Positions 10,531 through 24,438 of a stretch of 64,000 nucleotides of DNA are shown here, piece by piece. The position numbers were made by a program, and so were the translations under genes. Below the pieces are notes generated by a model. That model was not told where the DNA came from, made no database searches, and saw nothing but the letters and a program-made list of their open reading frames with translations. This stretch comes from Escherichia coli O157:H7 (lineage in GTDB: Bacteria; Pseudomonadota; Gammaproteobacteria; Enterobacterales; Enterobacteriaceae): NCBI RefSeq assembly GCF_013167455.1, contig NZ_CP038328.1; one strand, written 5' to 3'. How positions within the stretch are numbered: position 1 is the first letter of the stretch; each line of letters opens with the position of its first letter.

Positions 10531-10561
10531 GGCCTACAATGCCAGTACAGAATTGTAGGCC
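10531..10561. terminator. hairpin GGCCTACAAT-N11-ATTGTAGGCC between convergent ydjE and pncA (bidirectional terminator or REP-like unit)
   Basis: 10-bp perfect inverted repeat read directly from the sequence. Confidence 0.5.
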
Positions 10562-10570
10562 AGCGTAAAA

Positions 10571-13196: not shown

Positions 13197-15053
13197 TTAA
13201 CGCACGTTGGCGCAGGTCAGGCAAAACGCATAACGGTTTTGTGGGTCGTTAAACGCCGCCAGCTTGTCGCTTTCACTTTTAACGGTAGAGGCTACCGAGG
13301 CCAGCGGTGCAGGTAACATGGCCTGGAACGCATCTGGCAACATTGCCCGGACAGAACCAGACATGTTGTCCATCACTTTGTCGAAGAAGGTCGGTTCATC
13401 AACGTAGTATTCCAGATGCCACTGTTTCGCTTTTGCCAGCTCTGCTGCTTTGGCGACCGCATCATCGAAATCCCCGAGACTATCGACCAGCCCGTTAGCT
13501 TTTGCGTCCTGACCGGTCCAGACGTGGCCCTGGGCGATTTTATCAATCTGCTCCGGCGTCGAATGACGCGCATCAGCAACCAGCGTGATAAAGCGTTTAT
13601 AGCCATTCTCAATGCTTAACTGCATCATCTGCTGCGCTTCCGGCGGCAGTGCCCTGGTGATAGAAACATCCGCCAGCGGTGAAGTTGAGACACCATCAGT
13701 ATGAACACCAATCGAATCCAGACTATTTTCTACGGTGGTGATCACGCCGAAGATACCAATAGAACCGGTCAGGGTGCTGGGGTTAGCCACAATGTAATTA
13801 GCTGGCGTGGAAATCCAGTAACCACCAGATGCCGCCATGCCGCCCATCGATACAACCACAGGCTTACCCGCTGCCCGGGCTGCTGCCAGTTCAGCGCGAA
13901 TCACTTCAGACGCGGTAACGCTGCCGCCTGGGCTATTAACACGCAGGACAATCGCTTTCACTTTCGGGTCAAGGCGAGCGTCGCGGATTTGTGCCGCAGT
14001 GGTATCACCGCCAACATTCCCCTGAGTTTCCTCGCCATCCATAATTGCGCCATTAGCGAAGACGACACCGATGCTGTCACCGGTATCTGCCGGCGTTTTC
14101 AATGCGTAATCGTAATAACTGATGGCGCGATAATTTTTATCAGCCTTACTCCAGCCGAACTCTTTGGTCAGTGCTTTTTCGATTTCCGCACTCGATGCCA
14201 GTGCATCGACCAGCTTGTTTTCCAGTGCATATTTCGCGGTATCGCCACCGGTTTTGGTTAAACCCTCAAGCAACCCTTGCGCGCCAGGGAATACCTGCTG
14301 AGCAGGGATCTGCCGGTTAGCGGCAACAGTATTCAGATAGTTTTGCCACAGCTCACCAATCCAGCGGCTGTCAGCTTCGCGGGCTGCCGGTGACATGTCA
14401 TCACGAATAAACGGTTCAACGGCAGATTTATACGTACCCACGCGGAACACATGGGTGGAAACTTTCAGCTTATCCAGCAACGATTTGTAGTACAGACCGT
14501 TGGTAGCAAAACCGTGCAAATCCACCACGCCTTGCGGTGACAGCCAAATTTTATTGGCGAAACTGGCGAGATAATATTGCCCCTGGCTGTAGTTCTCGCC
14601 AACGGCATAAACCGGTTTCCCGCTGTCACGAAACTCTTTCAGGGCTTTGCCGATGTACTGCATAGACGGTTGGTCGCCGCCTGCGAAGTTTTTCAGATCC
14701 ATCACGATACCGGTGATATTGCGGTCATCCTTCGCCTGGCGAATGGTATTGACGATATCAAACAGTGAGTTTTCCTGCAGACGATCGGAACTGGCACCAA
14801 GTAGTTGGCGGCTTAATTTACTAAACCGCTGAGAACTGTCGGGTTTATCGACGATCACACCAGAAATGTCCAGCAGCAGTGCACCACGACTGGCCGTTTC
14901 TTTCGAATCACCACCACTGACCTGCATCCAGATCCCCACACCAACCAGCACGAGAAAAATAAAGAACAGGTTAAGTACCATTTCACGGACGAAATTCAGC
15001 AGACGCCACGTCCATTTAAAAAATCCGGCAATAAATCGCCAAAGGGTTCGCAT
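13197..15053 (-). CDS. sppA: signal peptide peptidase A (protease IV)
   Basis: 618 codons from [21 protein letters not shown]; tandem S49 peptidase domains. Confidence 0.9.
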
Positions 15054-15213
15054 GTATTCTCCCAACTTAAGGTCACACCTGTCACAGGCGCAATAGATGT
15101 GGTTATCGTAATGACCCAACCGGCACTTGTCAGCAGGAATTGCGGACTGTGCTGTAACAAAATCCACTCTCGTGTTAATTTTGTGAATAAATATCACGAC
15201 AGGAGTTAATCAA

Positions 15214-15765
15214 ATGGATGCACTCGAACTATTGATCAATCGCCGTAGCGCCTCCCGCCTGGCTGAACCCGCACCAACGGGTGAACAACTGCAAAACATC
15301 CTGCGTGCGGGTATGCGCGCGCCGGACCATAAGTCCATGCAACCGTGGCATTTTTTTGTGATTGAAGGGGAAGGGCGCGAGCGTTTCAGCGCCGTACTGG
15401 AACAGGGGGCGATTGCTGCCGGTAGTGATGACAAAGCTATCGACAAAGCCCGTAATGCGCCGTTCCGCGCACCGCTCATCATCACGGTGGTGGCGAAATG
15501 CGAAGAAAATCATAAAGTCCCGCGATGGGAACAGGAAATGTCTGCCGGATGCGCGGTCATGGCGATGCAAATGGCAGCCGTTGCCCAGGGGTTTGGCGGC
15601 ATCTGGCGCAGTGGCGCATTAACTGAAAGTCCGGTAGTGCGTGAAGCATTCGGTTGCCGTGAGCAGGATAAAATTGTCGGTTTTCTCTACCTCGGCACGC
15701 CGCAGCTGAAAGCATCTACGTCGATAAACGTCCCGGACCCGACGCCGTTTGTCACTTATTTCTGA
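15214..15765 (+). CDS. ydjA: NAD(P)H nitroreductase
   Basis: 183-aa [24 protein letters not shown]..., nitroreductase fold. Confidence 0.9.
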
Positions 15766-15881
15766 TAATTGTCGCGAAACTGTCTGGATTGTGAGCAAAG
15801 GCGCAGGAATTCAGACACTCTCACTTATCACTTCACGGAATGAGGGTTACCATACCCGGATTGCATTGACAGGAGATGTCC

Positions 15882-16925
15882 ATGAGCGAGAACTCGATTC
15901 GTTTGACCCAATACAGCCACGGAGCTGGTTGCGGCTGTAAAATTTCCCCAAAAGTGTTGGAAACCATCCTGCACAGTGAGCAGGCGAAGTTTGTTGATCC
16001 GAATTTGCTTGTGGGTAATGAAACCCGCGACGATGCGGCGGTGTACGATCTGGGCAATGGCACCAGCGTTATCAGTACCACCGACTTCTTTATGCCGATC
16101 GTTGATAATCCTTTCGATTTTGGCCGCATTGCGGCGACTAACGCCATCAGCGATATCTTCGCGATGGGGGGCAAACCGATTATGGCAATTGCGATCCTCG
16201 GCTGGCCGATTAACAAACTTTCCCCGGAAATTGCCCGCGAAGTAACCGAAGGTGGACGCTATGCATGCCGTCAGGCGGGTATTGCGCTGGCTGGCGGTCA
16301 CTCCATCGATGCGCCGGAGCCGATTTTTGGTCTGGCGGTAACGGGGATCGTACCGACCGAGCGGGTGAAGAAAAACAGTACCGCACAAGCCGGATGTAAA
16401 CTGTTCCTGACGAAACCGCTGGGGATCGGCGTTCTTACCACGGCTGAGAAAAAATCACTGCTGAAACCAGAACATCAGGGACTGGCGACGGAAGTGATGT
16501 GCCGGATGAACATCGCAGGCGCGTCCTTTGCCAACATTGAAGGCGTAAAAGCGATGACCGACGTAACGGGCTTTGGCCTGCTGGGCCATTTGAGCGAAAT
16601 GTGTCAGGGCGCAGGTGTGCAGGCGCGCGTTGACTATGACGCGATCCCGAAATTGCCGGGGGTTGAAGAGTACATTAAGTTGGGTGCAGTGCCTGGCGGC
16701 ACCGAACGTAACTTTGCCAGCTACGGTCATCTGATGGGTGAAATGCCGCGTGAAGTGCGCGATTTGCTGTGCGATCCGCAAACTTCTGGCGGTTTGCTGC
16801 TGGCGGTCATGCCGGAAGCCGAAAATGAGGTCAAAGCTACAGCCGCCGAGTTTGGCATTGAACTGACGGCGATTGGCGAACTGGTGCCAGCACGCGGCGG
16901 TCGTGCCATGGTTGAGATCCGTTAA
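15882..16925 (+). CDS. selD: selenide, water dikinase (selenophosphate synthetase)
   Basis: 347 codons [23 protein letters not shown] with the glycine-rich Cys/Lys N-terminal motif. Confidence 0.9.
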
Positions 16926-16929
16926 TTCA

Positions 16930-18891
16930 ATGCGGTTGTTTATTGCCGAAAAACCGAGTCTGGCGCGCGCCATTGCTGATGTCCTGCCCAAACCGCACCG
17001 GAAAGGCGATGGCTTTATCGAGTGCGGTAATGGTCAGGTGGTGACCTGGTGTATCGGTCACCTGCTTGAGCAGGCGCAGCCAGACGCCTACGACAGCCGC
17101 TATGCGCGCTGGAATCTTGCGGATTTGCCGATTGTCCCGGAAAAGTGGCAATTACAGCCCCGACCCTCCGTGACCAAACAACTTAACGTCATCAAACGGT
17201 ACCTGCATGAAGCCAGCGAAATCGTTCACGCCGGGGACCCGGATCGCGAAGGGCAACTGCTGGTGGATGAAGTGCTGGACTATCTACAACTGGCACCGGA
17301 AAAGCGCCAGCAGGTGCAGCGTTGCTTGATAAACGACCTGAACCCGCAGGCGGTTGAGCGGGCGATCGACCGTCTTCGTTCCAACAGTGAGTTTGTACCG
17401 CTGTGCGTTTCTGCGCTGGCGCGAGCGCGTGCCGACTGGCTGTACGGCATCAATATGACCCGTGCGTATACCATTCTCGGTCGCAATGCCGGTTATCAGG
17501 GCGTGCTTTCCGTGGGACGCGTGCAGACGCCCGTGCTTGGGCTGGTGGTGCGCCGCGATGAAGAGATTGAAAACTTCGTGGCGAAAGACTTCTTTGAAGT
17601 CAAAGCACATATCGTGACACCTGCCGATGAGCGGTTTACCGCTATCTGGCAACCGAGCGAAGCGTGTGAACCGTACCAGGATGAAGAAGGGCGCTTGTTA
17701 CATCGTCCACTGGCGGAGCATGTGGTTAACCGCATTAGTGGTCAACCGGCTATTGTCACCAGCTATAACGATAAACGGGAATCAGAATCCGCGCCGCTGC
17801 CGTTTTCGCTTTCGGCGTTGCAGATTGAAGCGGCAAAACGCTTTGGTCTGAGCGCGCAGAACGTGCTTGATATCTGCCAGAAGCTGTACGAAACGCACAA
17901 GCTAATCACTTATCCGCGTTCCGATTGTCGCTATTTGCCAGAAGAACATTTTGCCGGACGCCACGCGGTGATGAATGCCATCAGCGTTCATGCACCAGAT
18001 CTGTTGCCGCAGCCAGTGGTAGATCCAGATATACGCAACCGCTGTTGGGATGACAAAAAGGTCGATGCGCACCACGCCATCATTCCGACCGCACGGAGTT
18101 CTGCGATCAACCTGACGGAGAACGAAGCGAAGGTCTATAACCTGATTTCCCGTCAGTATCTGATGCAGTTCTGCCCGGATGCGGTGTTCCGCAAGTGTGT
18201 TATCGAACTGGACATTGCCAAAGGCAAATTTGTCGCTAAAGCGCGTTTTCTTGCTGAAGCAGGCTGGCGCACGCTGTTAGGCAGCAAAGAGCGCGATGAA
18301 GAAAACGACGGTACGCCATTGCCTGTGGTGGCGAAAGGCGATGAGTTGCTGTGTGAAAAAGGTGAAGTGGTAGAGCGGCAAACCCAGCCGCCGCGCCATT
18401 TTACCGATGCAACACTGCTTTCGGCGATGACCGGGATCGCGCGCTTTGTGCAGGACAAAGATCTGAAAAAGATCCTTCGTGCGACCGATGGTCTGGGGAC
18501 AGAAGCAACGCGTGCCGGGATTATTGAACTGTTGTTCAAGCGTGGTTTCCTCATCAAAAAAGGGCGCTATATCCACTCCACCGACGCCGGAAAAGCGTTA
18601 TTCCATTCGCTGCCAGAAATGGCTACGCGACCGGACATGACCGCGCACTGGGAATCGGTGCTGACGCAAATCAGCGAAAAGCAGTGTCGCTATCAGGACT
18701 TTATGCAGCCGCTGGTGGGGACGCTATATCAGCTTATTGATCAAGCCAAACGTACTCCGGTGCGGCAGTTTCGCGGCATTGTGGCTCCGGGCAGTGGTGG
18801 CAGTGCTGATAAGAAAAAGGCTGCACCGCGTAAACGTAGTGCGAAAAAAAGTCCGCCAGCAGATGAAGCCGGAAGCGGGGCGATAGCGTAA
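16930..18891 (+). CDS. topB: DNA topoisomerase III
   Basis: 653 codons from [19 protein letters not shown] (Toprim start); lysine/arginine-rich C-terminal tail. Confidence 0.9.
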
Positions 18892-19018
18892 GCGAGCGAA
18901 TCTTTCGTGCTATTCGAGTCATATTCTGAAATATCCAGCGGATCAAGAAAATTCGTTGGATATTTTTTTTGCATGGATAAAATTATCGCCTCTAAAGTAT
19001 GTAATAACAGGGAATGTG

Positions 19019-20059
19019 ATGAAAAAAGTTTTATTACAAAACCATCCTGGGAGCGAGAAGTATTCTTTTAATGGCTGGGAAATATTTAATAGTAATTTTG
19101 AACGGATGATTAAAGAAAATAAGACCATGCTGCTTTGTAAGTGGGGGTTTTATTTAACATGTGTTGTCGCTGTAATGTTTGTATTCGCAGCGATAACATC
19201 CAACGGTTTGAATGAAAGAGGCCTGATTACCGCGGGATGCTCTTTTCTTTATCTATTAATTATGATGGGGCTTATTGTTCGGGCCGGTTTTAAAGCAAAA
19301 AAAGAACAGCTGCATTATTATCAGGCTAAAGGTATTGAGCCGCTCAGTATCGAGAAATTACAGGCGCTACAATTGATCGCACCTTATCGATTCTATCATA
19401 AGCAATGGTCTGAAACGCTGGAGTTCTGGCCGCGAAAGCCTGAACCTGGCAAAGATACCTTCCAATATCATGTGCTTCCTTTTGACTCGATCGATATCAT
19501 AAGTAAAAGACGCGAGTCTTTAGAGGAACAATGGGGTATCGAAGATAGCGAAAGTTATTGTGCCTTAATGGAGCATTTTCTTTCTGGCGACCATGGAGCC
19601 AATACCTTTAAAGCAAACATGGAGGAAGCCCCAGAGCAGGTTATCGCCTTGTTGAATAAATTTGCTGTTTTTCCCTCAGACTATATCTCTGATTGCGCTA
19701 ATCATAGCTCCGGTAAATCCTCGGCGAAGCTAATATGGGCGGCGGAATTATCATGGATGATCTCGATATCAAGCACAGCTTTTCAAAACGGGACAATTGA
19801 AGAAGAACTGGCCTGGCATTATATAATGCTTGCTTCTCGAAAGGCGCACGAGTTGTTCGAAAGCGAAGAAGATTATCAAAAAAATAGTCTAATGGGATTT
19901 CTTTACTGGCATATCTGCTGCTATCGCAGAAAGTTAACGGATGCTGAACTTGAAGCTTGTTATCGTTACGACAAGCAGTTTTGGGAGCACTACAGTAAGA
20001 AATGCCGTTGGCCCATAAGAAATGTTCCCTGGGGAGCATCATCCGTTAAATACTCATAA
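19019..20059 (+). CDS. ynjI: inner-membrane protein of unknown function (DUF1266)
   Basis: 346 codons from the ATG at 19019 (MKKVLLQNHPGSEKY...); AT-richer than its neighbours; the ORF-track form starts at a TTG 63 bp upstream. Confidence 0.75.
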   Translation: MKKVLLQNHPGSEKYSFNGWEIFNSNFERMIKENKTMLLCKWGFYLTCVVAVMFVFAAITSNGLNERGLITAGCSFLYLLIMMGLIVRAGFKAKKEQLHYYQAKGIEPLSIEKLQALQLIAPYRFYHKQWSETLEFWPRKPEPGKDTFQYHVLPFDSIDIISKRRESLEEQWGIEDSESYCALMEHFLSGDHGANTFKANMEEAPEQVIALLNKFAVFPSDYISDCANHSSGKSSAKLIWAAELSWMISISSTAFQNGTIEEELAWHYIMLASRKAHELFESEEDYQKNSLMGFLYWHICCYRRKLTDAELEACYRYDKQFWEHYSKKCRWPIRNVPWGASSVKYS

Positions 20060-20069
20060 ACGCCTGAAA

Positions 20070-20168
20070 TTTTGCCGGGGGCGCTGCGCTTGCCCGGCCT
20101 ACATTAGAGCGTAACTGCAATGAATTGTGCCCATTTGTAGGCCTGATAAGCGTAGCGCCATCAGGCAT
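20070..20168. repeat. BIME/REP cluster (two palindromic units)
   Basis: GCCGGGGGCGCTGCGCTTGCCCGGCCTACA and TGTAGGCCTGATAAGCGTAGCGCCATCAGGC match the REP palindromic-unit consensus; lies between convergent ynjI and gdhA. Confidence 0.7.
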
Positions 20169-20175
20169 TTACAAC

Positions 20176-21519
20176 TTAAATCACACCCTGCGCCAGCATC
20201 GCATCGGCAACCTTCACAAAACCGGCAATGTTCGCGCCCTGCACGTAGTTGGTTTGCTCACCTTCACCACCATGCTCAACACAGGCATGGTGGATATCCA
20301 GCATGATGTGATGCAAACGTGCGTCAACTTTCTCGGCTTTCCAGCCCAGGCGCGCAGCGTTTTGTGCCATTTCCAGGCCCGATGTAGCGACGCCACCAGC
20401 ATTAGCCGCTTTACCCGGTGCAAATAGTACGCCTGCCTGCTGGAACAGTTCAGTCGCTTCGATGGTGGTCGGCATATTTGCCCCTTCGGCGACGGCTTTA
20501 ACGCCATTAGCGATAAGCTGATGCGCGGCGTCAACATCCAGTTCGTTCTGGGTAGCGCAAGGCAGGGCGATATCAACCGGTACAGACCACGGCTGTTGGC
20601 CTTCGAGATAGACCAGACCAAATTCTTTGGCGTAATCTGCCACTCGACCATCGCGGCTGGATTTGATTTCGATAAGACGTGCCAGTTTCTCTTTCGTGAA
20701 TCCGCTTTCATCAACTACAGTGCCGCTGGAGTCTGACGCAGTGATCACACGAGCACCAAATTCCATCGCTTTTTCGATAGCGTACTGGGCGACGTTGCCG
20801 GAGCCAGAAACGGAAACGCGCATGCCTTCAAAACCCATACCGTGGCGTTTTAGCATTGCTTCTGTGAAATAAACCAGACCGTAGCCGGTAGCTTCCGGGC
20901 GAATAAGACTGCCGCCAAATGAAAGGCCCTTACCGGTGAAGACGCAGGCGGTATTGTTGGAGAGCTTTTTCATCATCCCCGCCATAAAGCCGACTTCACG
21001 ACCACCAACCCCGATATCACCTGCCGGAACGTCGGTATCCGCGCCCAGGTGGCGATACAGTTCAGTCATCAGCGCCTGGCAGAAACGCATCACTTCGCCT
21101 TCGCTTTTCCCTTTCGGGTCGAAATCGCTGCCGCCTTTACCACCGCCCATCGGCAGAGTAGTCAGGGCATTTTTGAAGGTTTGTTCGAAGCCGAGGAATT
21201 TAAGAATGGAAAGGTTAACTGACGGATGGAAGCGCATACCGCCTTTGTACGGGCCGATGGCAGAGCTGAACTGCACACGCCATGCACGGTTGACCTGTAC
21301 CTGATTGCGATCATCAACCCATACCACGCGAAACTGGATCACGCGCTCCGGTTCAACCAGACGCTCCAGTAATGACATCTGGCGATATTTTGGATTTTGT
21401 TCAAGAAAAGGCCAGAGTGTGGTCATTACTTCACGAACGGCTTGCGCGAACTCGGTTTGATTCGGGTCGCGCTTTTGGACATGGTTGAGGAATGACTCCA
21501 GAGAATATGTCTGATCCAT
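20176..21519 (-). CDS. gdhA: NADP-specific glutamate dehydrogenase
   Basis: 447-aa ORF MDQTYSLESFLNHVQKRDPNQTEF..., GGGKGG motif. Confidence 0.95.
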   Translation of the reverse strand: MDQTYSLESFLNHVQKRDPNQTEFAQAVREVMTTLWPFLEQNPKYRQMSLLERLVEPERVIQFRVVWVDDRNQVQVNRAWRVQFSSAIGPYKGGMRFHPSVNLSILKFLGFEQTFKNALTTLPMGGGKGGSDFDPKGKSEGEVMRFCQALMTELYRHLGADTDVPAGDIGVGGREVGFMAGMMKKLSNNTACVFTGKGLSFGGSLIRPEATGYGLVYFTEAMLKRHGMGFEGMRVSVSGSGNVAQYAIEKAMEFGARVITASDSSGTVVDESGFTKEKLARLIEIKSSRDGRVADYAKEFGLVYLEGQQPWSVPVDIALPCATQNELDVDAAHQLIANGVKAVAEGANMPTTIEATELFQQAGVLFAPGKAANAGGVATSGLEMAQNAARLGWKAEKVDARLHHIMLDIHHACVEHGGEGEQTNYVQGANIAGFVKVADAMLAQGVI

Positions 21520-21754
21520 AGATATAAAACCCTTATATATTAATACGATTGTGCTTATGTTGTTTATGTCATGTGCTTTTGCAGTTTTCGACTATACCAT
21601 CAAGAATGTGACGGTAAGCAAGAAAAAAATGACCCAGGAAAGCAAATTAATAACGAGAGTAATCTCATAACCAAATGCGATAACTCAGACGCTAAAGTTT
21701 TGCCACCCGGCTACCGTTATCAGTAGCAGAGACAATAACGTTAAGGAGTTCCCT

Positions 21755-22027
21755 GTGAGTCGAGCATTGTTCGCCGTAGTATTAGCATTTCCATTAATTG
21801 CACTGGCTAACCCGCATTATGGTCCGGACGTGGAGGTAAACGTACCGCCAGAAGTGGTCAGTTCAGGCGGGCAGTCAGCGCAGCCCTGTACTCAGTGCTG
21901 CGTTTATCAGGATAAAAATTATTCTGAAGGGGCGGTAATTAAAGCCGAAGGAATACTGCTGCAATGCCAGCGGGATGACAAAACCCTTAGCACTAATCCG
22001 CTGGTCTGGCGGCGCGTAAAGCCATAA
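21755..22027 (+). CDS. ynjH: secreted small protein of unknown function (DUF1496)
   Basis: 90-aa ORF with GTG start 6 nt after AAGGAG; N-terminal signal peptide MSRALFAVVLAFPLIALA. Confidence 0.75.
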   Translation: MSRALFAVVLAFPLIALANPHYGPDVEVNVPPEVVSSGGQSAQPCTQCCVYQDKNYSEGAVIKAEGILLQCQRDDKTLSTNPLVWRRVKP

Positions 22028-22400
22028 ACGCCTCTAATAATGGAATGTCAGCAGGAGCCAGCGGATATTGCAGCGCCTCTTCAGGTGAGCACCAGACCAG
22101 CGCCTGATGTTCATGTGCCTGTAACGTCCCGTGGAAGTCGGGTACGTGCCAGGCATGAAGATGGATAATCCGGCCCGAAACTTCTCGCTGATGGCTGGCA
22201 ACATACTCACCCACAGTTGCTTCGATGCCCAATTCTTCGTTTAACTCACGCACCAGCGCCTGCTGCTGGCTTTCATCCGGCTCGACTTTACCACCGGCAA
22301 ACTCCCATAATCCCGCCTGATCGCTCTGGGCGGGGCGTTGCGCGAGTAAAATTTTGCCATCACGTTCAATGATGGCGGCAACAACTTCAATCATTTTCAT
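21993..22400 (-). CDS. nudG: Nudix hydrolase (CTP/dCTP pyrophosphohydrolase)
   Basis: 135-aa ORF with Nudix box GGKVEPDESQQQALVRELNEELGI. Confidence 0.85.
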   Translation of the reverse strand: MKMIEVVAAIIERDGKILLAQRPAQSDQAGLWEFAGGKVEPDESQQQALVRELNEELGIEATVGEYVASHQREVSGRIIHLHAWHVPDFHGTLQAHEHQALVWCSPEEALQYPLAPADIPLLEAFMALRAARPAD

Positions 22401-22486
22401 AAATTACACACGGGCAGATAAGCGAAAAATGCCATAATATCCGCACTGTTGCTCAATCAGAAAGGCTTTATATTTAAGGAGTGCCT

Positions 22487-23107
22487 GTGCTAGACCGCCA
22501 TCTTCATCCCCGGATTAAACCGTTGTTGCATCAGTGTGTGCGGGTTCTTGATAAACCGGGCATTACGCCAGATGGTTTAACATTAGTGGGATTTGCCATC
22601 GGTGTGCTGGCACTGCCTTTTCTGGCGCTGGGCTGGTATCTGGCGGCGCTTGTCGTCATTTTGTTGAACAGGCTGCTTGATGGTCTGGACGGTGCGCTGG
22701 CGCGGCGCAGAGGGCTTACCGACGCGGGCGGCTTTCTTGATATTTCTCTCGATTTTCTTTTTTACGCGCTGGTACCTTTTGGGTTTATCCTCGCCGCACC
22801 GCAGCAAAACGCCCTGGCAGGCGGCTGGCTGCTGTTTGCGTTTATCGGCACGGGTAGCAGTTTTCTCGCTTTTGCTGCGCTGGCGGCGAAATATCAGATT
22901 GATAATCCCGGTTATGCGCATAAATCGTTTTATTATCTGGGGGGATTAACCGAAGGCACAGAAACGATCTTACTGTTTGTGCTGGGATGTTTATTCCCTG
23001 CATGGTTTGCGTGGTTTGCGTGGATCTTCGGTGCGTTGTGCTGGATGACGACCTTTACGCGGGTGTGGAGTGGGTATCTGACGCTGAAGTCGCTCCAGCG
23101 TCAGTAA
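22487..23107 (+). CDS. ynjF: CDP-alcohol phosphatidyltransferase family membrane protein
   Basis: 206 codons from the GTG at 22487 (6 nt after AAGGAG); DG(x2)AR...G...D...D motif (LDGLDGALARRRGLTDAGGFLDISLD). Confidence 0.8.
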   Translation: MLDRHLHPRIKPLLHQCVRVLDKPGITPDGLTLVGFAIGVLALPFLALGWYLAALVVILLNRLLDGLDGALARRRGLTDAGGFLDISLDFLFYALVPFGFILAAPQQNALAGGWLLFAFIGTGSSFLAFAALAAKYQIDNPGYAHKSFYYLGGLTEGTETILLFVLGCLFPAWFAWFAWIFGALCWMTTFTRVWSGYLTLKSLQRQ

Positions 23108-23115
23108 TTGCAATG

Positions 23116-24438
23116 TTATTTGCTGCTGTCCGGGCCGCGTTCACCGGTTGCTACCGGATTTTTTGGATCGCTGCTCCATTCGTACCAGCCGCCGTCGTAA
23201 ACGGAGACGTTATTCCAGCCCATTGCTCGTGCGTACATAAAGGTTTCGGACGCGCGCCAGCCGGTGCCGCAGTAGAATGAAACTTGCTGATCTGGTTTGA
23301 TATTCCATGCTTTCCACATAGCGGTAATATCATCGGCGCTACGCATGGTGCCATCCGGATTATGGAAATCTTCCATATGCGTCGAGTCGCTACCAGCGTG
23401 TCCCCAACGTGCTCCGGCTATTTCACCTTTTGGTTTAATATAGCTGTAACCGCTGGTCGTACCGATAAATTCTGGCCACGAACGAATGCTCACCAGCGAT
23501 GCATCCTGGCGATGCAGCAGTCCACGGGCCTGTTCCATATCGAGCATCAACTGCGGTTGTGCCGGGATCTTCACGCCGAAATCCGGTTCCGCTTTCACTT
23601 TCGGTGGCGTACCGCGCTCAACGGGCAGACCCGCGTCGGACCAGGTTTGCCAGCCGCCATCCAGCAGGCGCACATCTTTCACGCCGGCATAAAGCATAAT
23701 CTGCGCCACACGCGCTGCAGCGTATACGTCACGCCCGTACAGAATGACCGTGGTGTCATGGCGAATGCCGTGTTTTGCCAGCATCGCTTTTAGTTGTTCA
23801 TCAGAAACTTTGTTCCACAGCGGTTCGCTTTCCACTTCGTTGGTATCGATGTAGTCAGCACCGGGAATATGGCTGATAAGGTAAAGCTTAGGAGCGCCCC
23901 TGGCCGCTTCAATGACTTTCCAGTCACCGGCAGGTTTCGCCGTAACCTCTTTACCTTGTTGCAGGTCGTGCAGCCATTGCGGATAAACCAGCTGCTCAAA
24001 GTGCGGCAGTTTTTGTAGACGGGAAGGTTCGCTTAGCGCGTCACTCAGAATGGAGATATGCGTAAAACCTGCTTTTTGCAGTCGCGTTTTGACGGCGTCG
24101 ACATCTTTGCCATTACCGTACAGCGCCACCGGGGCATCGGCTTTCAGGTTATGTTGCTTGATCCACGCGTTGAGCTGTTCGGTGCTCATTTTGTCAAGCC
24201 AGCTAGCAGAGAGGTTTAAGGCGGCAGGTTCATGACCAGAAGGGCCATTTAAGGTTTGTGGCCAGCCGTTATAAAACGCGCTGGAGCGAGTATCTATCGC
24301 TTTGCCATTTTGTTGTTGAAGCTGGTCAAGTGTAAGAGGCTTCGCCAGTTCAGCGGCCCACGAAGAAGCGCAAGCCAGCCCTAAAGCCATTGCCAGCGCG
24401 GTCATTTGAGAAACACGTTTCATCGAAAATCCCGACAT
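23116..24438 (-). CDS. ynjE: three-domain rhodanese (thiosulfate/mercaptopyruvate sulfurtransferase), periplasmic
   Basis: 440-aa ORF (435 aa from the second Met); signal peptide; active-site loop CGTGWRAS. Confidence 0.85.
   Translation of the reverse strand: MSGFSMKRVSQMTALAMALGLACASSWAAELAKPLTLDQLQQQNGKAIDTRSSAFYNGWPQTLNGPSGHEPAALNLSASWLDKMSTEQLNAWIKQHNLKADAPVALYGNGKDVDAVKTRLQKAGFTHISILSDALSEPSRLQKLPHFEQLVYPQWLHDLQQGKEVTAKPAGDWKVIEAARGAPKLYLISHIPGADYIDTNEVESEPLWNKVSDEQLKAMLAKHGIRHDTTVILYGRDVYAAARVAQIMLYAGVKDVRLLDGGWQTWSDAGLPVERGTPPKVKAEPDFGVKIPAQPQLMLDMEQARGLLHRQDASLVSIRSWPEFIGTTSGYSYIKPKGEIAGARWGHAGSDSTHMEDFHNPDGTMRSADDITAMWKAWNIKPDQQVSFYCGTGWRASETFMYARAMGWNNVSVYDGGWYEWSSDPKNPVATGERGPDSSK

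Follow-up and report, generated by a model that had tools for sequence, protein, structure and literature searches.

The topB-gdhA interval of Escherichia coli as a probable multi-allelic slot holding ynjI and a BIME-1

Introduction

Gain and loss of genes at chromosomal hotspots between conserved core genes is a general concept of comparative genomics. REP units are imperfect 30-40-nt palindromes whose foot carries a conserved GTAG (CTAC) tetranucleotide, and they occur as many extragenic copies scattered over the genome. A BIME-1 is a single-copy inverted pair of such units, a y and a z1, joined by a long L linker, and the linker frequently carries an IHF site (PMC3333891). Elsewhere in E. 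coli, the ybeQ-hscC cluster, ordered ybeQ(Sel1)-ybeR(DUF1266)-djlB(J)-ybeT(Sel1)-ybeU(DUF1266)-djlC(J)-hscC in K-12, encodes two soluble DUF1266 proteins, YbeR and YbeU, together with the HscC-DjlC/DjlB Hsp70 system (PMC8215388).

Here we describe the interval between topB and gdhA in a 64,000-nucleotide stretch of E. coli O157:H7 DNA (the window). With a probability of about 70%, we read positions 18720-20175 as an allele of an accessory slot that has several alleles and is bounded by topB and the convergent gdhA. Such an allele would comprise four parts: the final ~57 codons of topB in a form particular to the haplotype, a topB terminator hairpin overlapping a weak ynjI promoter, a persistently AT-rich ynjI encoding a two-helix membrane anchor and a DUF1266 domain, and one BIME-1 (y, L, z1) between the ynjI and gdhA stop codons. 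Alleles would be swapped by homologous recombination in conserved flanks, the topB body on the left and the BIME or gdhA end on the right, and not by a mobile element.

Results

The O157:H7 interval holds a single AT-rich gene and a single repeat element. Positions 18700-20400 are 100% identical to E. coli O157:H7, and RefSeq calls topB, ynjI ("DUF1266 domain-containing protein") and gdhA there. Terminator and promoter, ynjI and the BIME make up the content of the 1,284-bp interval. The sequence-only reading had called ynjI AT-richer than both neighbors, and the composition bears this out: G+C is 41.0% in ynjI versus 55.2% in topB and 53.5% in gdhA, GC3 is 41%, 59% and 55% respectively, and across the 64 kb just 3.8% of windows of 1,041 nt reach the same AT content. 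The features discussed below are as follows.

18720-18891, plus strand: last ~57 codons of topB, encoding a C-terminal tail rich in Lys and Arg; identity drops here, at the left end of the variable segment
18922-18929, plus strand: probable BglJ-RcsB box (taTTCTGA) inside the invariant block AATTCTGAAATATCCA; fits the published core wwTTCykA (PMC3950696)
18928-18970, plus strand: topB intrinsic terminator, a hairpin of 16 pairs then a T-run by terminator scan
18956-18983, plus strand: probable ynjI promoter, with a weak -35 TTGGAT at 18956-18961 and a -10 TAAAAT at 18978-18983
19019-20059, plus strand: ynjI coding sequence, 346 aa and stop, from RefSeq, Pfam, hydropathy, an AF2 model and dN/dS
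20074-20103, minus strand: y-type REP unit, GTAG head at the 20102 end, 14 nt past the ynjI stop codon
20104-20135, no strand: 32-nt L linker of the BIME-1, its length and conserved positions common to two independent BIME-1 copies
20136-20167, plus strand: z1-type REP unit with its GTAG head at 20137; it follows the stop codon of the opposite-strand gdhA by 8-9 nt
20176-21519, minus strand: gdhA, the conserved right flank, convergent with ynjI; haplotype homology returns at its stop codon

The interval lacks the hallmarks of an integrated element. Its genes are ynjI alone, plus the BIME, with no integrase or transposase; positions 14000-24000 hold no tRNA gene, and a search for direct repeats flanking the interval found none. 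On these three counts we rejected a genomic island or integrative element. Rfam covariance models gave no match at E<=1 across 18000-21800.

The interval exists in at least four states across 5,426 complete E. coli genomes. Comparative alignment thus upheld the suspicion of the sequence-only reading that the interval varies between strains. The ynjI and BIME-1 state accounts for 3,469 genomes, an empty state with a 76-bp spacer and one y REP for 1,531, and a cassette of an HscC-like Hsp70 and a J-domain/Sel1 protein for 352; the remaining defined state, a hyperdivergent ynjI allele with 68% amino acid identity and dS of about 3, was found in 13. At megablast sensitivity ynjI matched at the topB-gdhA locus only, and genomes outside the ynjI group matched gdhA only. 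Because ynjI is confined to one locus at that sensitivity, the states behave as alleles.

The alleles have sharp edges. On the left, divergence sets in within the final ~170 nt of topB; on the right it stops at the BIME or where gdhA terminates, at its stop codon. Against haplotypes B and C, O157 shows an identity of 0.90-1.00 through 18719 but of 0.30-0.75 from 18720 on, and each haplotype has its own version of the TopB tail. Genomes with the divergent ynjI allele are 95-100% identical in the flanks but 57-76% in the ynjI body, with dS of 2.97 in ynjI versus 0.07-0.10 in selD, topB and gdhA; O157 identity returns exactly where the y unit begins. The Hsp70-type cassette, a second HscC-type Hsp70 system carried by ~6% of complete genomes, is present in Nissle 1917. 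YnjI has no similarity to the J/Sel1 protein of haplotype C. A 266-aa Nissle protein has no Pfam match, and its 49-residue match to YnjI (E=5e-4) was judged not meaningful as evidence of homology.

The repeat downstream of ynjI is a single BIME-1. A z1 consensus had no match in the sequence at up to 3 mismatches, owing to a 1-nt insertion in the topB-gdhA copy, and a structure-based pattern, GTAGGCCKG-N14-26-CMGGC, was used in its place. Scanning the 64 kb with this pattern gave exactly two matches, 20074-20102 on the minus strand and 20137-20166 on the plus strand, against 0.01 expected from shuffled sequence. The formal scan therefore supports both REP units that the sequence-only reading had placed at 20070-20168, a placement correct to within 4 nt. 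The units are inverted copies of one another (24 nt, 83% complementary, 32 nt apart), and each folds into a hairpin of -13 to -16 kcal/mol. The element follows the BIME-1 definition: a y unit, a 32-nt L linker and a z1 unit, inverted and single. What had been described as a BIME cluster at the 3' end of ynjI is thus a BIME in the right place, though one BIME-1 and not a cluster.

This copy aligns column for column with the BIME-1 (RIP/RIB) copies at pepB-sseB and fliA-fliC. Like them, it is extragenic, lies between convergent 3' ends, and has GTAG heads facing a ~32-nt linker. Its y unit has GCCGGG/CCCGGC feet in place of the usual GCCGGAT...ATCCGGC, and its loop is shortened by 5 nt. The same variant is kept at this locus in Pseudocitrobacter, so the BIME-1 copy is old at the site. 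Related sequence is abundant elsewhere: the 101-116-nt BIME element matches at a median of 16 places per E. coli genome, with a maximum of 36 (E<=1e-3), and the matches listed have no annotated feature underneath.

With the IHF consensus core taken as WATCAANNNNTTR, the linker contains an IHF-like core, CTGCAAtgaaTTG, that is degenerate, matching at 6/9 positions, and the fliA-fliC copy matches at 8/9; IHF may bind here. The remark that such elements bind gyrase fits poorly, since in vivo gyrase cleavage is documented and enriched for BIME-2 (PMC6379681), and the ynjI-gdhA element, a BIME-1, lacks the tandem y and z2 units and short linkers of that class. The REP hairpins would form the 3'-end structures of two converging mRNAs, ynjI and gdhA. 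According to Liang 2015, as cited in PMC12306157, a REP reduces translation of the gene before it when that gene's stop codon is under 16 nt away; each of the two units here is that close to a stop codon.

Could the BIME itself drive the variability, by REP-mediated illegitimate recombination, through the REP-associated transposase TnpA-REP, or as a target for insertion sequences whose activity leaves deletions or replacements? We consider this conceivable but doubtful. In the divergent allele the right junction coincides precisely with the y unit, every empty Escherichia allele retains one to three REPs in its spacer, and the empty allele of Pseudocitrobacter faecalis holds the same REP units in permuted order. 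TnpA-REP cleaves BIMEs in vitro (PMC3333891). Insertion sequences do land here: IS621 interrupts the z1 unit at GTAG|GCC in strain PSJ-36, and IS1397 lies within the single REP of an empty allele. However, the left boundary is topB coding sequence with no REP, haplotype C ends in an ordinary hairpin instead of a REP, and plain homologous recombination would also break at a conserved repeat. The general expectation that REP/BIME elements mark boundaries of variable DNA thus holds for the right edge and fails for the left. With no REP at the left breakpoint, the variability can be explained without the BIME.

Other enterobacteria share ynjI at this site. Outside E. coli, four lineages have the gene in the topB-gdhA interval, with amino acid identities of 58-90%: Escherichia sp. 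MOD1-EC7003 (90%), P. faecalis (80%), an unplaced genus (60%) and a Kluyvera georgiana-like genome (58%). In two of these lineages the type strain of the same or nearest species, P. faecalis (flanks 99% identical) and K. georgiana respectively, is without it. Its G+C is 39-44% in every host, versus 53-61% in the flanks, and the hairpin, -10, Shine-Dalgarno sequence and ATG are conserved across the ynjI-bearing lineages. In P. faecalis the BIME-1 is also conserved, and dS of ynjI is 1.28 versus 1.3-1.8 in the flanks. The permuted REP units rule out the P. faecalis empty allele as a single deletion of the occupied one. topB and gdhA lie within 300 bp of each other in 62/80 enterobacterial species representatives, and ynjI is present in 1/80; those without it include E. 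albertii, E. whittamii, Salmonella, Citrobacter and Klebsiella. From these alignments we infer that the ynjI cassette is old at topB-gdhA and has been repeatedly lost or replaced, but the species counts fit gain and recombinational spread as well as repeated loss.

An unlikely alternative is that ynjI and the BIME form a recent foreign islet of some E. coli lineages, with the empty site ancestral. The low GC3 of the gene (41% versus 55-60% in the flanks), its absence from 36% of E. coli and from 79/80 species representatives, and a response to H-NS like that of many acquired genes would all agree with recent import. Yet orthologs occupy the same site in the four other lineages, synonymous divergence of the P. 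faecalis gene equals that of its flanks, and promoter and terminator are conserved across genera. Mobility genes, tRNA genes and direct repeats are all absent, and the low G+C is kept in every host, unlike an import still to adjust. These observations sit better with a long-standing allele of the topB-gdhA slot.

YnjI is a membrane-anchored member of the DUF1266 family. The product of 19019-20056 matches PF06889 at E=2e-26 (93.7 bits against a cut-off of 27, above the Pfam gathering threshold), with residues 167-338 spanning profile positions 1-175 of 175, and so the DUF1266 label of the sequence-only reading was right. Hydropathy places membrane helices at about residues 38-60 and 68-90. In the AF2 model (pLDDT 90.4) the DUF1266 domain is all-helical, and from the charge distribution it is probably cytoplasmic; no structural relative of YnjI was found. 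An LQNHPG motif just after the ATG is nearly invariant among 55 homologs, dN/dS is 0.07-0.15, and by these measures ynjI is a real gene under purifying selection. The subfamily is rare, with 84 representatives among 1.84 billion. YnjI shares PF06889 with YbeR and YbeU, but has ~165 extra N-terminal residues with two membrane helices, and ynjI stands alone without an overlapping J-protein gene. Pairwise comparison of YnjI with YbeR or YbeU gave no significant similarity.

The company kept by DUF1266 genes suggests two functional readings. The first, which takes YnjI for an immunity-like protein orphaned from a toxin-immunity pair and makes the slot a hotspot of conflict genes, strikes us as improbable. 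Distant YnjI-type genes directly follow genes for a 653-aa Amidase_3 protein and a 270-aa Exo_endo_phos protein, others adjoin an SMI1_KNR4 gene or share an island with a YobI-ATPase, and in one genus the topB-gdhA slot itself encodes a Lipase_3 protein and, after it, a pair of ~300-aa paralogs; some ynjI alleles are very divergent. These contexts number three or four only, however, and no toxin partner is present at the E. coli locus. YnjI matches no PADLOC defense family at E<=0.01, its overall dN/dS is low, and a cytoplasmic DUF1266 domain would be ill-suited to guard against a cell-wall amidase.

The second reading draws on chaperones. A DUF1266 gene adjoins or overlaps a J-domain gene in ybeR-djlB, in ybeU-djlC and in Leminorella, where a YbeU homolog overlaps a DnaJ/DjlB_C gene by 4 nt. 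The alternative topB-gdhA cargo encodes a full-length HscC paralog (43% identity) whose partner fuses a DjlC-like J domain to YbeQ-like Sel1 repeats. With low confidence, we suggest that YnjI could be an inner-membrane protein, expressed under certain conditions, with a DUF1266 domain in the cytoplasm that takes part in a membrane-proximal process like that of its HscC/DjlB/DjlC-linked paralogs YbeR and YbeU. A stronger version would make the slot a set of interchangeable parts of one membrane-proximal chaperone pathway: YnjI as membrane-anchored adaptor or client of HscC-type Hsp70/J machines, the HscC paralog and J-Sel1 cargo as its substitute, and the ynjI/cassette/empty polymorphism as long-lived across genera under balancing selection. 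We give this version very little credence. No J-domain or Hsp70 neighbor of ynjI or its YnjI-type homologs appeared in any context examined, and a search among YbeU homologs found no DnaJ-DUF1266 fusion.

Upstream of ynjI, the end of topB and the start of ynjI are compactly overlaid. The RNA of the topB terminator folds at -18 kcal/mol, and five lineages conserve its stem, in which T-A replaces C-G as a compensatory change. PMC3950696 reports that ynjI promoter activity requires the BglJ-RcsB site, which was mutagenized, that activity rises moderately in an hns stpA mutant, and that the box lies 65-68 nt from the transcription start. The AATTCTGAAATATCCA block around our putative box is invariant between lineages, and the reported distance would place the start at ~18990-93. 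The candidate -10 is likewise conserved across lineages. A consensus promoter scan found no plus-strand promoter upstream of ynjI; the candidate scores below threshold, as expected if it is activator-dependent. The weak promoter, overlapped by the terminator hairpin, would then be BglJ-RcsB-dependent and partly repressed by H-NS/StpA.

The ynjI reading frame begins at ATG 19019. This is the RefSeq start of the 346-aa protein, it is conserved in every lineage, and a Shine-Dalgarno sequence, AGGGA (19009-13), also conserved, lies 5 nt before it. The sequence-only reading had noted a non-canonical upstream frame from 18956. The frame is indeed open from TTG 18956, giving an ORF of 367 aa, but the true start is 63 nt further on, and the extra stretch is a mechanical ORF, neither coding nor conserved, that crosses the terminator of topB and the probable -35 of ynjI. 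That the TTG is a genuine alternative start adding 21 N-terminal residues is scarcely credible: apart from the open frame, it has in its favor automatic 383-aa gene calls for variants with another T-run length (P0001, 2,116 member sequences), but it sits in the descending arm of the terminator, is itself the first base of the candidate -35 and precedes the likely transcription start, single-nucleotide indels break the frame between TTG and ATG in two other lineages, and the Shine-Dalgarno sequence, the conserved family motif (from residue 5 of the 346-aa form) and RefSeq all point to the ATG.

Discussion

ynjI and BIME-1 are textbook items, and alone their presence changes nothing; with gene and repeat already known, the population picture is a modest addition. 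A 1.3-kb interval usually taken as fixed K-12 backbone proves to be a four-state locus, which is of modest comparative value. It offers a clean natural case of REP/BIME sequence at recombination junctions, attracting IS621 and IS1397, and it calls for caution in pan-genome or MLST-style use of the topB 3' end. The repeated association of DUF1266 with HscC, DjlB/DjlC and Sel1 genes is a testable lead on this domain.

Comparison with known systems places the slot near two of them. The HscC-DjlC/DjlB Hsp70 system is resembled by the alternative cargo, an HscC paralog with a J/Sel1 protein; this cassette lies outside the window, and its tie to ynjI consists of the shared slot and the co-occurrence of the families elsewhere. 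The slot itself resembles E. coli hotspots of gene gain and loss, which also hold alternative contents between the same two core genes and show a spike of divergence in the adjoining core-gene ends. Unlike typical hotspots, topB-gdhA is very small (0 to 3 genes), has no integrase or tRNA gene, and carries the same single-gene cargo at the same site in several genera.

The ynjI slot and its alternative contents

The interval between topB and gdhA is a variable slot that holds ynjI and a BIME-1 repeat in O157:H7. The gene, how it is regulated and the class of repeat were known before; our analysis adds a population structure of four states, the finding that the cassette recurs in several genera, the exact positions of the junctions and a weak lead on function. 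From 18700 to 20400 the window, which is E. coli O157:H7, matches strain PV15-279 at 100% identity; the RefSeq annotation of that strain gives topB, ynjI and gdhA here, and K-12 shares 99.4% identity over the same stretch with the same gene layout.

Features of the ynjI region
15876-16925, + strand, selD
16930-18891, + strand, topB
19019-20059, + strand, ynjI (RefSeq annotation; 346 aa)
20074-20102, - strand, y REP unit (pattern scan, stable hairpin)
20137-20166, + strand, z1 REP unit (pattern scan, stable hairpin)
20176-21519, - strand, gdhA

A survey of 5,426 complete E. coli genomes revealed that the interval is not invariant but takes at least four states, with about 60 genomes left unassigned. 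At megablast sensitivity ynjI matched nowhere but here, and genomes not in state A gave a match to gdhA alone, so the states behave as alleles.

States of the topB-gdhA interval in E. coli
State A: ynjI and BIME-1; 3,469 genomes, including K-12 and O157:H7
State B: spacer of 76 bp holding one y REP; 1,531 genomes, including UTI89 and UPEC132
State C: Hsp70-family gene and J-domain/Sel1-repeat gene; 352 genomes, including EC-1639 and Nissle 1917
State A2: ynjI allele with 68% amino acid identity; 13 genomes, including PT62 and ET201

State C, which pairs an HscC paralogue with a J-domain/Sel1 protein (loci L005 861-5000, L090 and L091), comes in sub-variants that carry a second J/Sel1 gene, as in BH100, or an extra 266-aa protein, which in Nissle 1917 has a signal peptide and 34% G+C. 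Its upstream spacer contains an ERIC-like repeat, and its cassette terminates in an ordinary hairpin, not a REP. IS insertions occur among state A and state B genomes. PSJ-36 (L110), whose ynjI is annotated as frameshifted, carries an insertion of about 1.28 kb with an IS621 transposase gene inside the z1 REP (GTAG|GCC, window equivalent 20139-20140), its junctions sharing a 2-bp overlap AG (CT on the other strand). ETEC4070 (L008, without ynjI) has IS1397 in the 76-bp topB-gdhA spacer, where other genomes of this haplotype have their one REP, and GDSC2239PM (H8) has an IS1 copy in the interval.

The junctions between states are sharp. Identity of state A to B or C is 0.90-1.00 through 18719 and 0.30-0.75 from 18720, within the last ~57 codons of topB, whose Lys/Arg-rich protein tail exists in a distinct version in each state; on the right, identity between states resumes at the gdhA stop codon. 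State A2 is 95-100% identical to O157 in flanks, promoter and BIME and 57-76% identical in the ynjI body, with a dS of 2.97 for ynjI versus 0.07-0.10 for neighbouring genes. Its identity to O157 returns exactly where the y unit begins, bearing out the proposal of the sequence-only reading that the repeat marks a boundary of variable DNA. In E. albertii NBRC 107761 (L016 6130-6414), topB ends early (…APSSGE*), leaving the Lys/Arg-rich-tail sequence of other species untranslated in the spacer, followed by a y-z2-y REP array.

A probably old cassette across genera

Occupancy by ynjI is rare across species but recurs in other genera. Of the 80 Enterobacteriaceae species representatives examined, 62 have topB and gdhA no more than 300 bp apart, one carries ynjI (Escherichia sp. 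MOD1-EC7003, 90% amino acid identity), and the remainder have other insertions or rearrangements. All empty Escherichia alleles keep 1-3 REPs in the spacer. An HscC-like/J pair occupies the site in Klebsiella spallanzanii. Across loci L047 8463-12441, L062, L049 and L067/L068 from other genera, the cargo at the site comprises a Lipase_3 protein of 692 aa accompanied by two ~300-aa paralogues of each other, a phage-like region that includes an integrase-like gene, a transporter/dehydratase/LysR block with an HscC-like/J pair behind it, and proteins of 269-291 aa that match no Pfam family. Two Enterobacter sp. genomes and Buttiauxella noackiae (L071, L072, L086) lack gdhA here and have ynjH directly after topB.

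We also found ynjI between topB and gdhA in a Pseudocitrobacter faecalis metagenome contig (80% amino acid identity), a Kluyvera georgiana-like contig (58%) and an unplaced genus (60%); the P. faecalis and K. georgiana type strains are without it. The flanks of the P. faecalis type strain are 99% identical to the occupied contig, which shares with E. coli the same BIME-1 and the same unusual y unit. The empty P. faecalis allele is not a clean deletion of the occupied one, since its z1 and y units stand in permuted order. Between E. coli and P. faecalis, dS is 1.28 for ynjI, matching the flanks at 1.3-1.8, and ynjI has 39-44% G+C in every host versus 53-61% for the flanks. From these comparisons, we read ynjI as an old cassette at this locus that recombination in the flanks would, time and again, have removed, exchanged or brought back.

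Promoter and terminator upstream of ynjI

The non-canonical frame noted upstream of ynjI is an ORF-calling artefact. This mechanical ORF opens at TTG 18956, which falls in the descending arm of the topB intrinsic terminator, a 16-pair hairpin followed by a T-run. In an alignment of seven topB-ynjI spacers drawn from five lineages, the conserved parts are the block AATTCTGAAATATCCA, the terminator hairpin, a -10 element (ATAAAAT), a Shine-Dalgarno sequence (AGGGA) and the ATG, and the stem shows a compensatory C-G to T-A change. Activation of the promoter in this spacer works through a BglJ-RcsB site, examined by mutagenesis, whose centre lies 65-68 nt before the transcription start, and ynjI expression increases moderately in an hns stpA mutant (PMC3950696). 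The sequence taTTCTGA at 18922-18929 fits the published core wwTTCykA (PMC3950696); given this box and the published box-to-start distance, transcription would begin near 18990, just 3' of TAAAAT (18978-83), with TTGGAT (18956-61) as a putative weak -35. In two lineages the stretch from TTG to ATG has indels of one nucleotide that disrupt the frame, and the family motif LQNHPG, nearly invariant in 55 homologues, begins at residue 5 of the 346-aa form. We therefore reject TTG 18956 as a start codon and assign it to promoter and terminator sequence. Public 383-aa calls (protein cluster P0001, 2,116 member sequences) join an upstream GTG ORF (18907) in frame to ynjI at the T-run 18960-18970, and variation in the length of this run probably accounts for them; another frequent public call is a 264-aa form truncated at the N terminus (P0004, 752 member sequences).

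The BIME-1 repeat

The repeat after ynjI is a BIME-1. A formal scan for a GTAG head with palindrome feet confirmed the two REP units of the sequence-only reading, finding exactly two sites in 64 kb against 0.01 expected by chance; they are inverted copies with 32 nt between them. Rfam gave no match at E<=1 in 18000-21800. The element has a median of 16 matching places per E. coli genome and aligns unit for unit with the pepB-sseB and fliA-fliC copies (y unit, ~32-nt linker, z1 unit), matching the published definition of y unit, L linker, often with an IHF site, and z1 unit (PMC3333891). Unlike the usual BIME-1, the ynjI copy has a y loop 5 nt shorter and a degenerate predicted IHF-like core in its linker (6/9 positions). 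Gyrase binding, raised in the sequence-only reading, fits this copy poorly: the class for which cleavage by gyrase has been documented in vivo is BIME-2, composed of y and z2 units (PMC6379681), making IHF, not gyrase, the relevant candidate partner. At 10529-10563 (tggcctacaatgccagtacagaattgtaggccag), two REP heads (CCTAC, GTAGG) face each other over 17 nt, neither with a REP stem, and may be a BIME remnant.

Both units sit close to stop codons. The y unit starts 14 nt past that of ynjI and the z1 unit 8-9 nt past that of gdhA on the other strand, both within the <16-nt range for which REPs are reported to reduce how much the preceding gene is translated (Liang 2015, as cited in PMC12306157). 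The empty haplotype also has a REP 9 nt past the gdhA stop codon.

YnjI and leads on its function

YnjI is a predicted membrane protein of rare architecture, under constraint. Its gene is AT-richer than its flanks, as noted from sequence, with 41.0% G+C (GC3 41%) versus 55.2% for topB (GC3 59%) and 53.5% for gdhA (GC3 55%), an AT-richness reached by just 3.8% of segments of this length across the 64 kb. Its dN/dS of 0.07-0.15 indicates a functional gene. The protein matches Pfam DUF1266 across the entire model (E=2e-26, residues 167-338), and hydropathy predicts two membrane helices (about residues 38-60 and 68-90). Lys/Arg-rich segments on both sides and a short loop would place both termini and DUF1266 in the cytoplasm. 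This architecture appears in 8 clusters among 5.8 billion proteins by word-based search and in 84 representatives among 1.84 billion by full HMMER scan.

Neighbouring genes offer two leads. Some distant YnjI-type genes follow an amidase or endonuclease/phosphatase-family gene or adjoin an SMI1_KNR4 gene, hinting weakly at an immunity-like role; YnjI has no match in PADLOC. The second lead is chaperone-related. The remaining two DUF1266 genes of K-12, ybeR and ybeU, overlap djlB and djlC, respectively, which encode J proteins, and cluster with two Sel1-repeat genes and hscC, and a YbeU homologue in Leminorella overlaps a DnaJ/DjlB_C gene. No J-protein or Hsp70 neighbour stands beside any YnjI-type gene examined. 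HscC is proposed to work at the membrane alongside DjlB and DjlC, which are tail-anchored, and its targets may be cytosolic domains of membrane proteins (PMC8215388), a picture that a membrane-anchored DUF1266 protein would fit circumstantially. The state C Hsp70 shares 43% identity with HscC from end to end, and its companion fuses a DjlC-like J domain to YbeQ-like Sel1 repeats. The state C cargo at the ynjI slot is a compact version of the K-12 ybe-hscC module.
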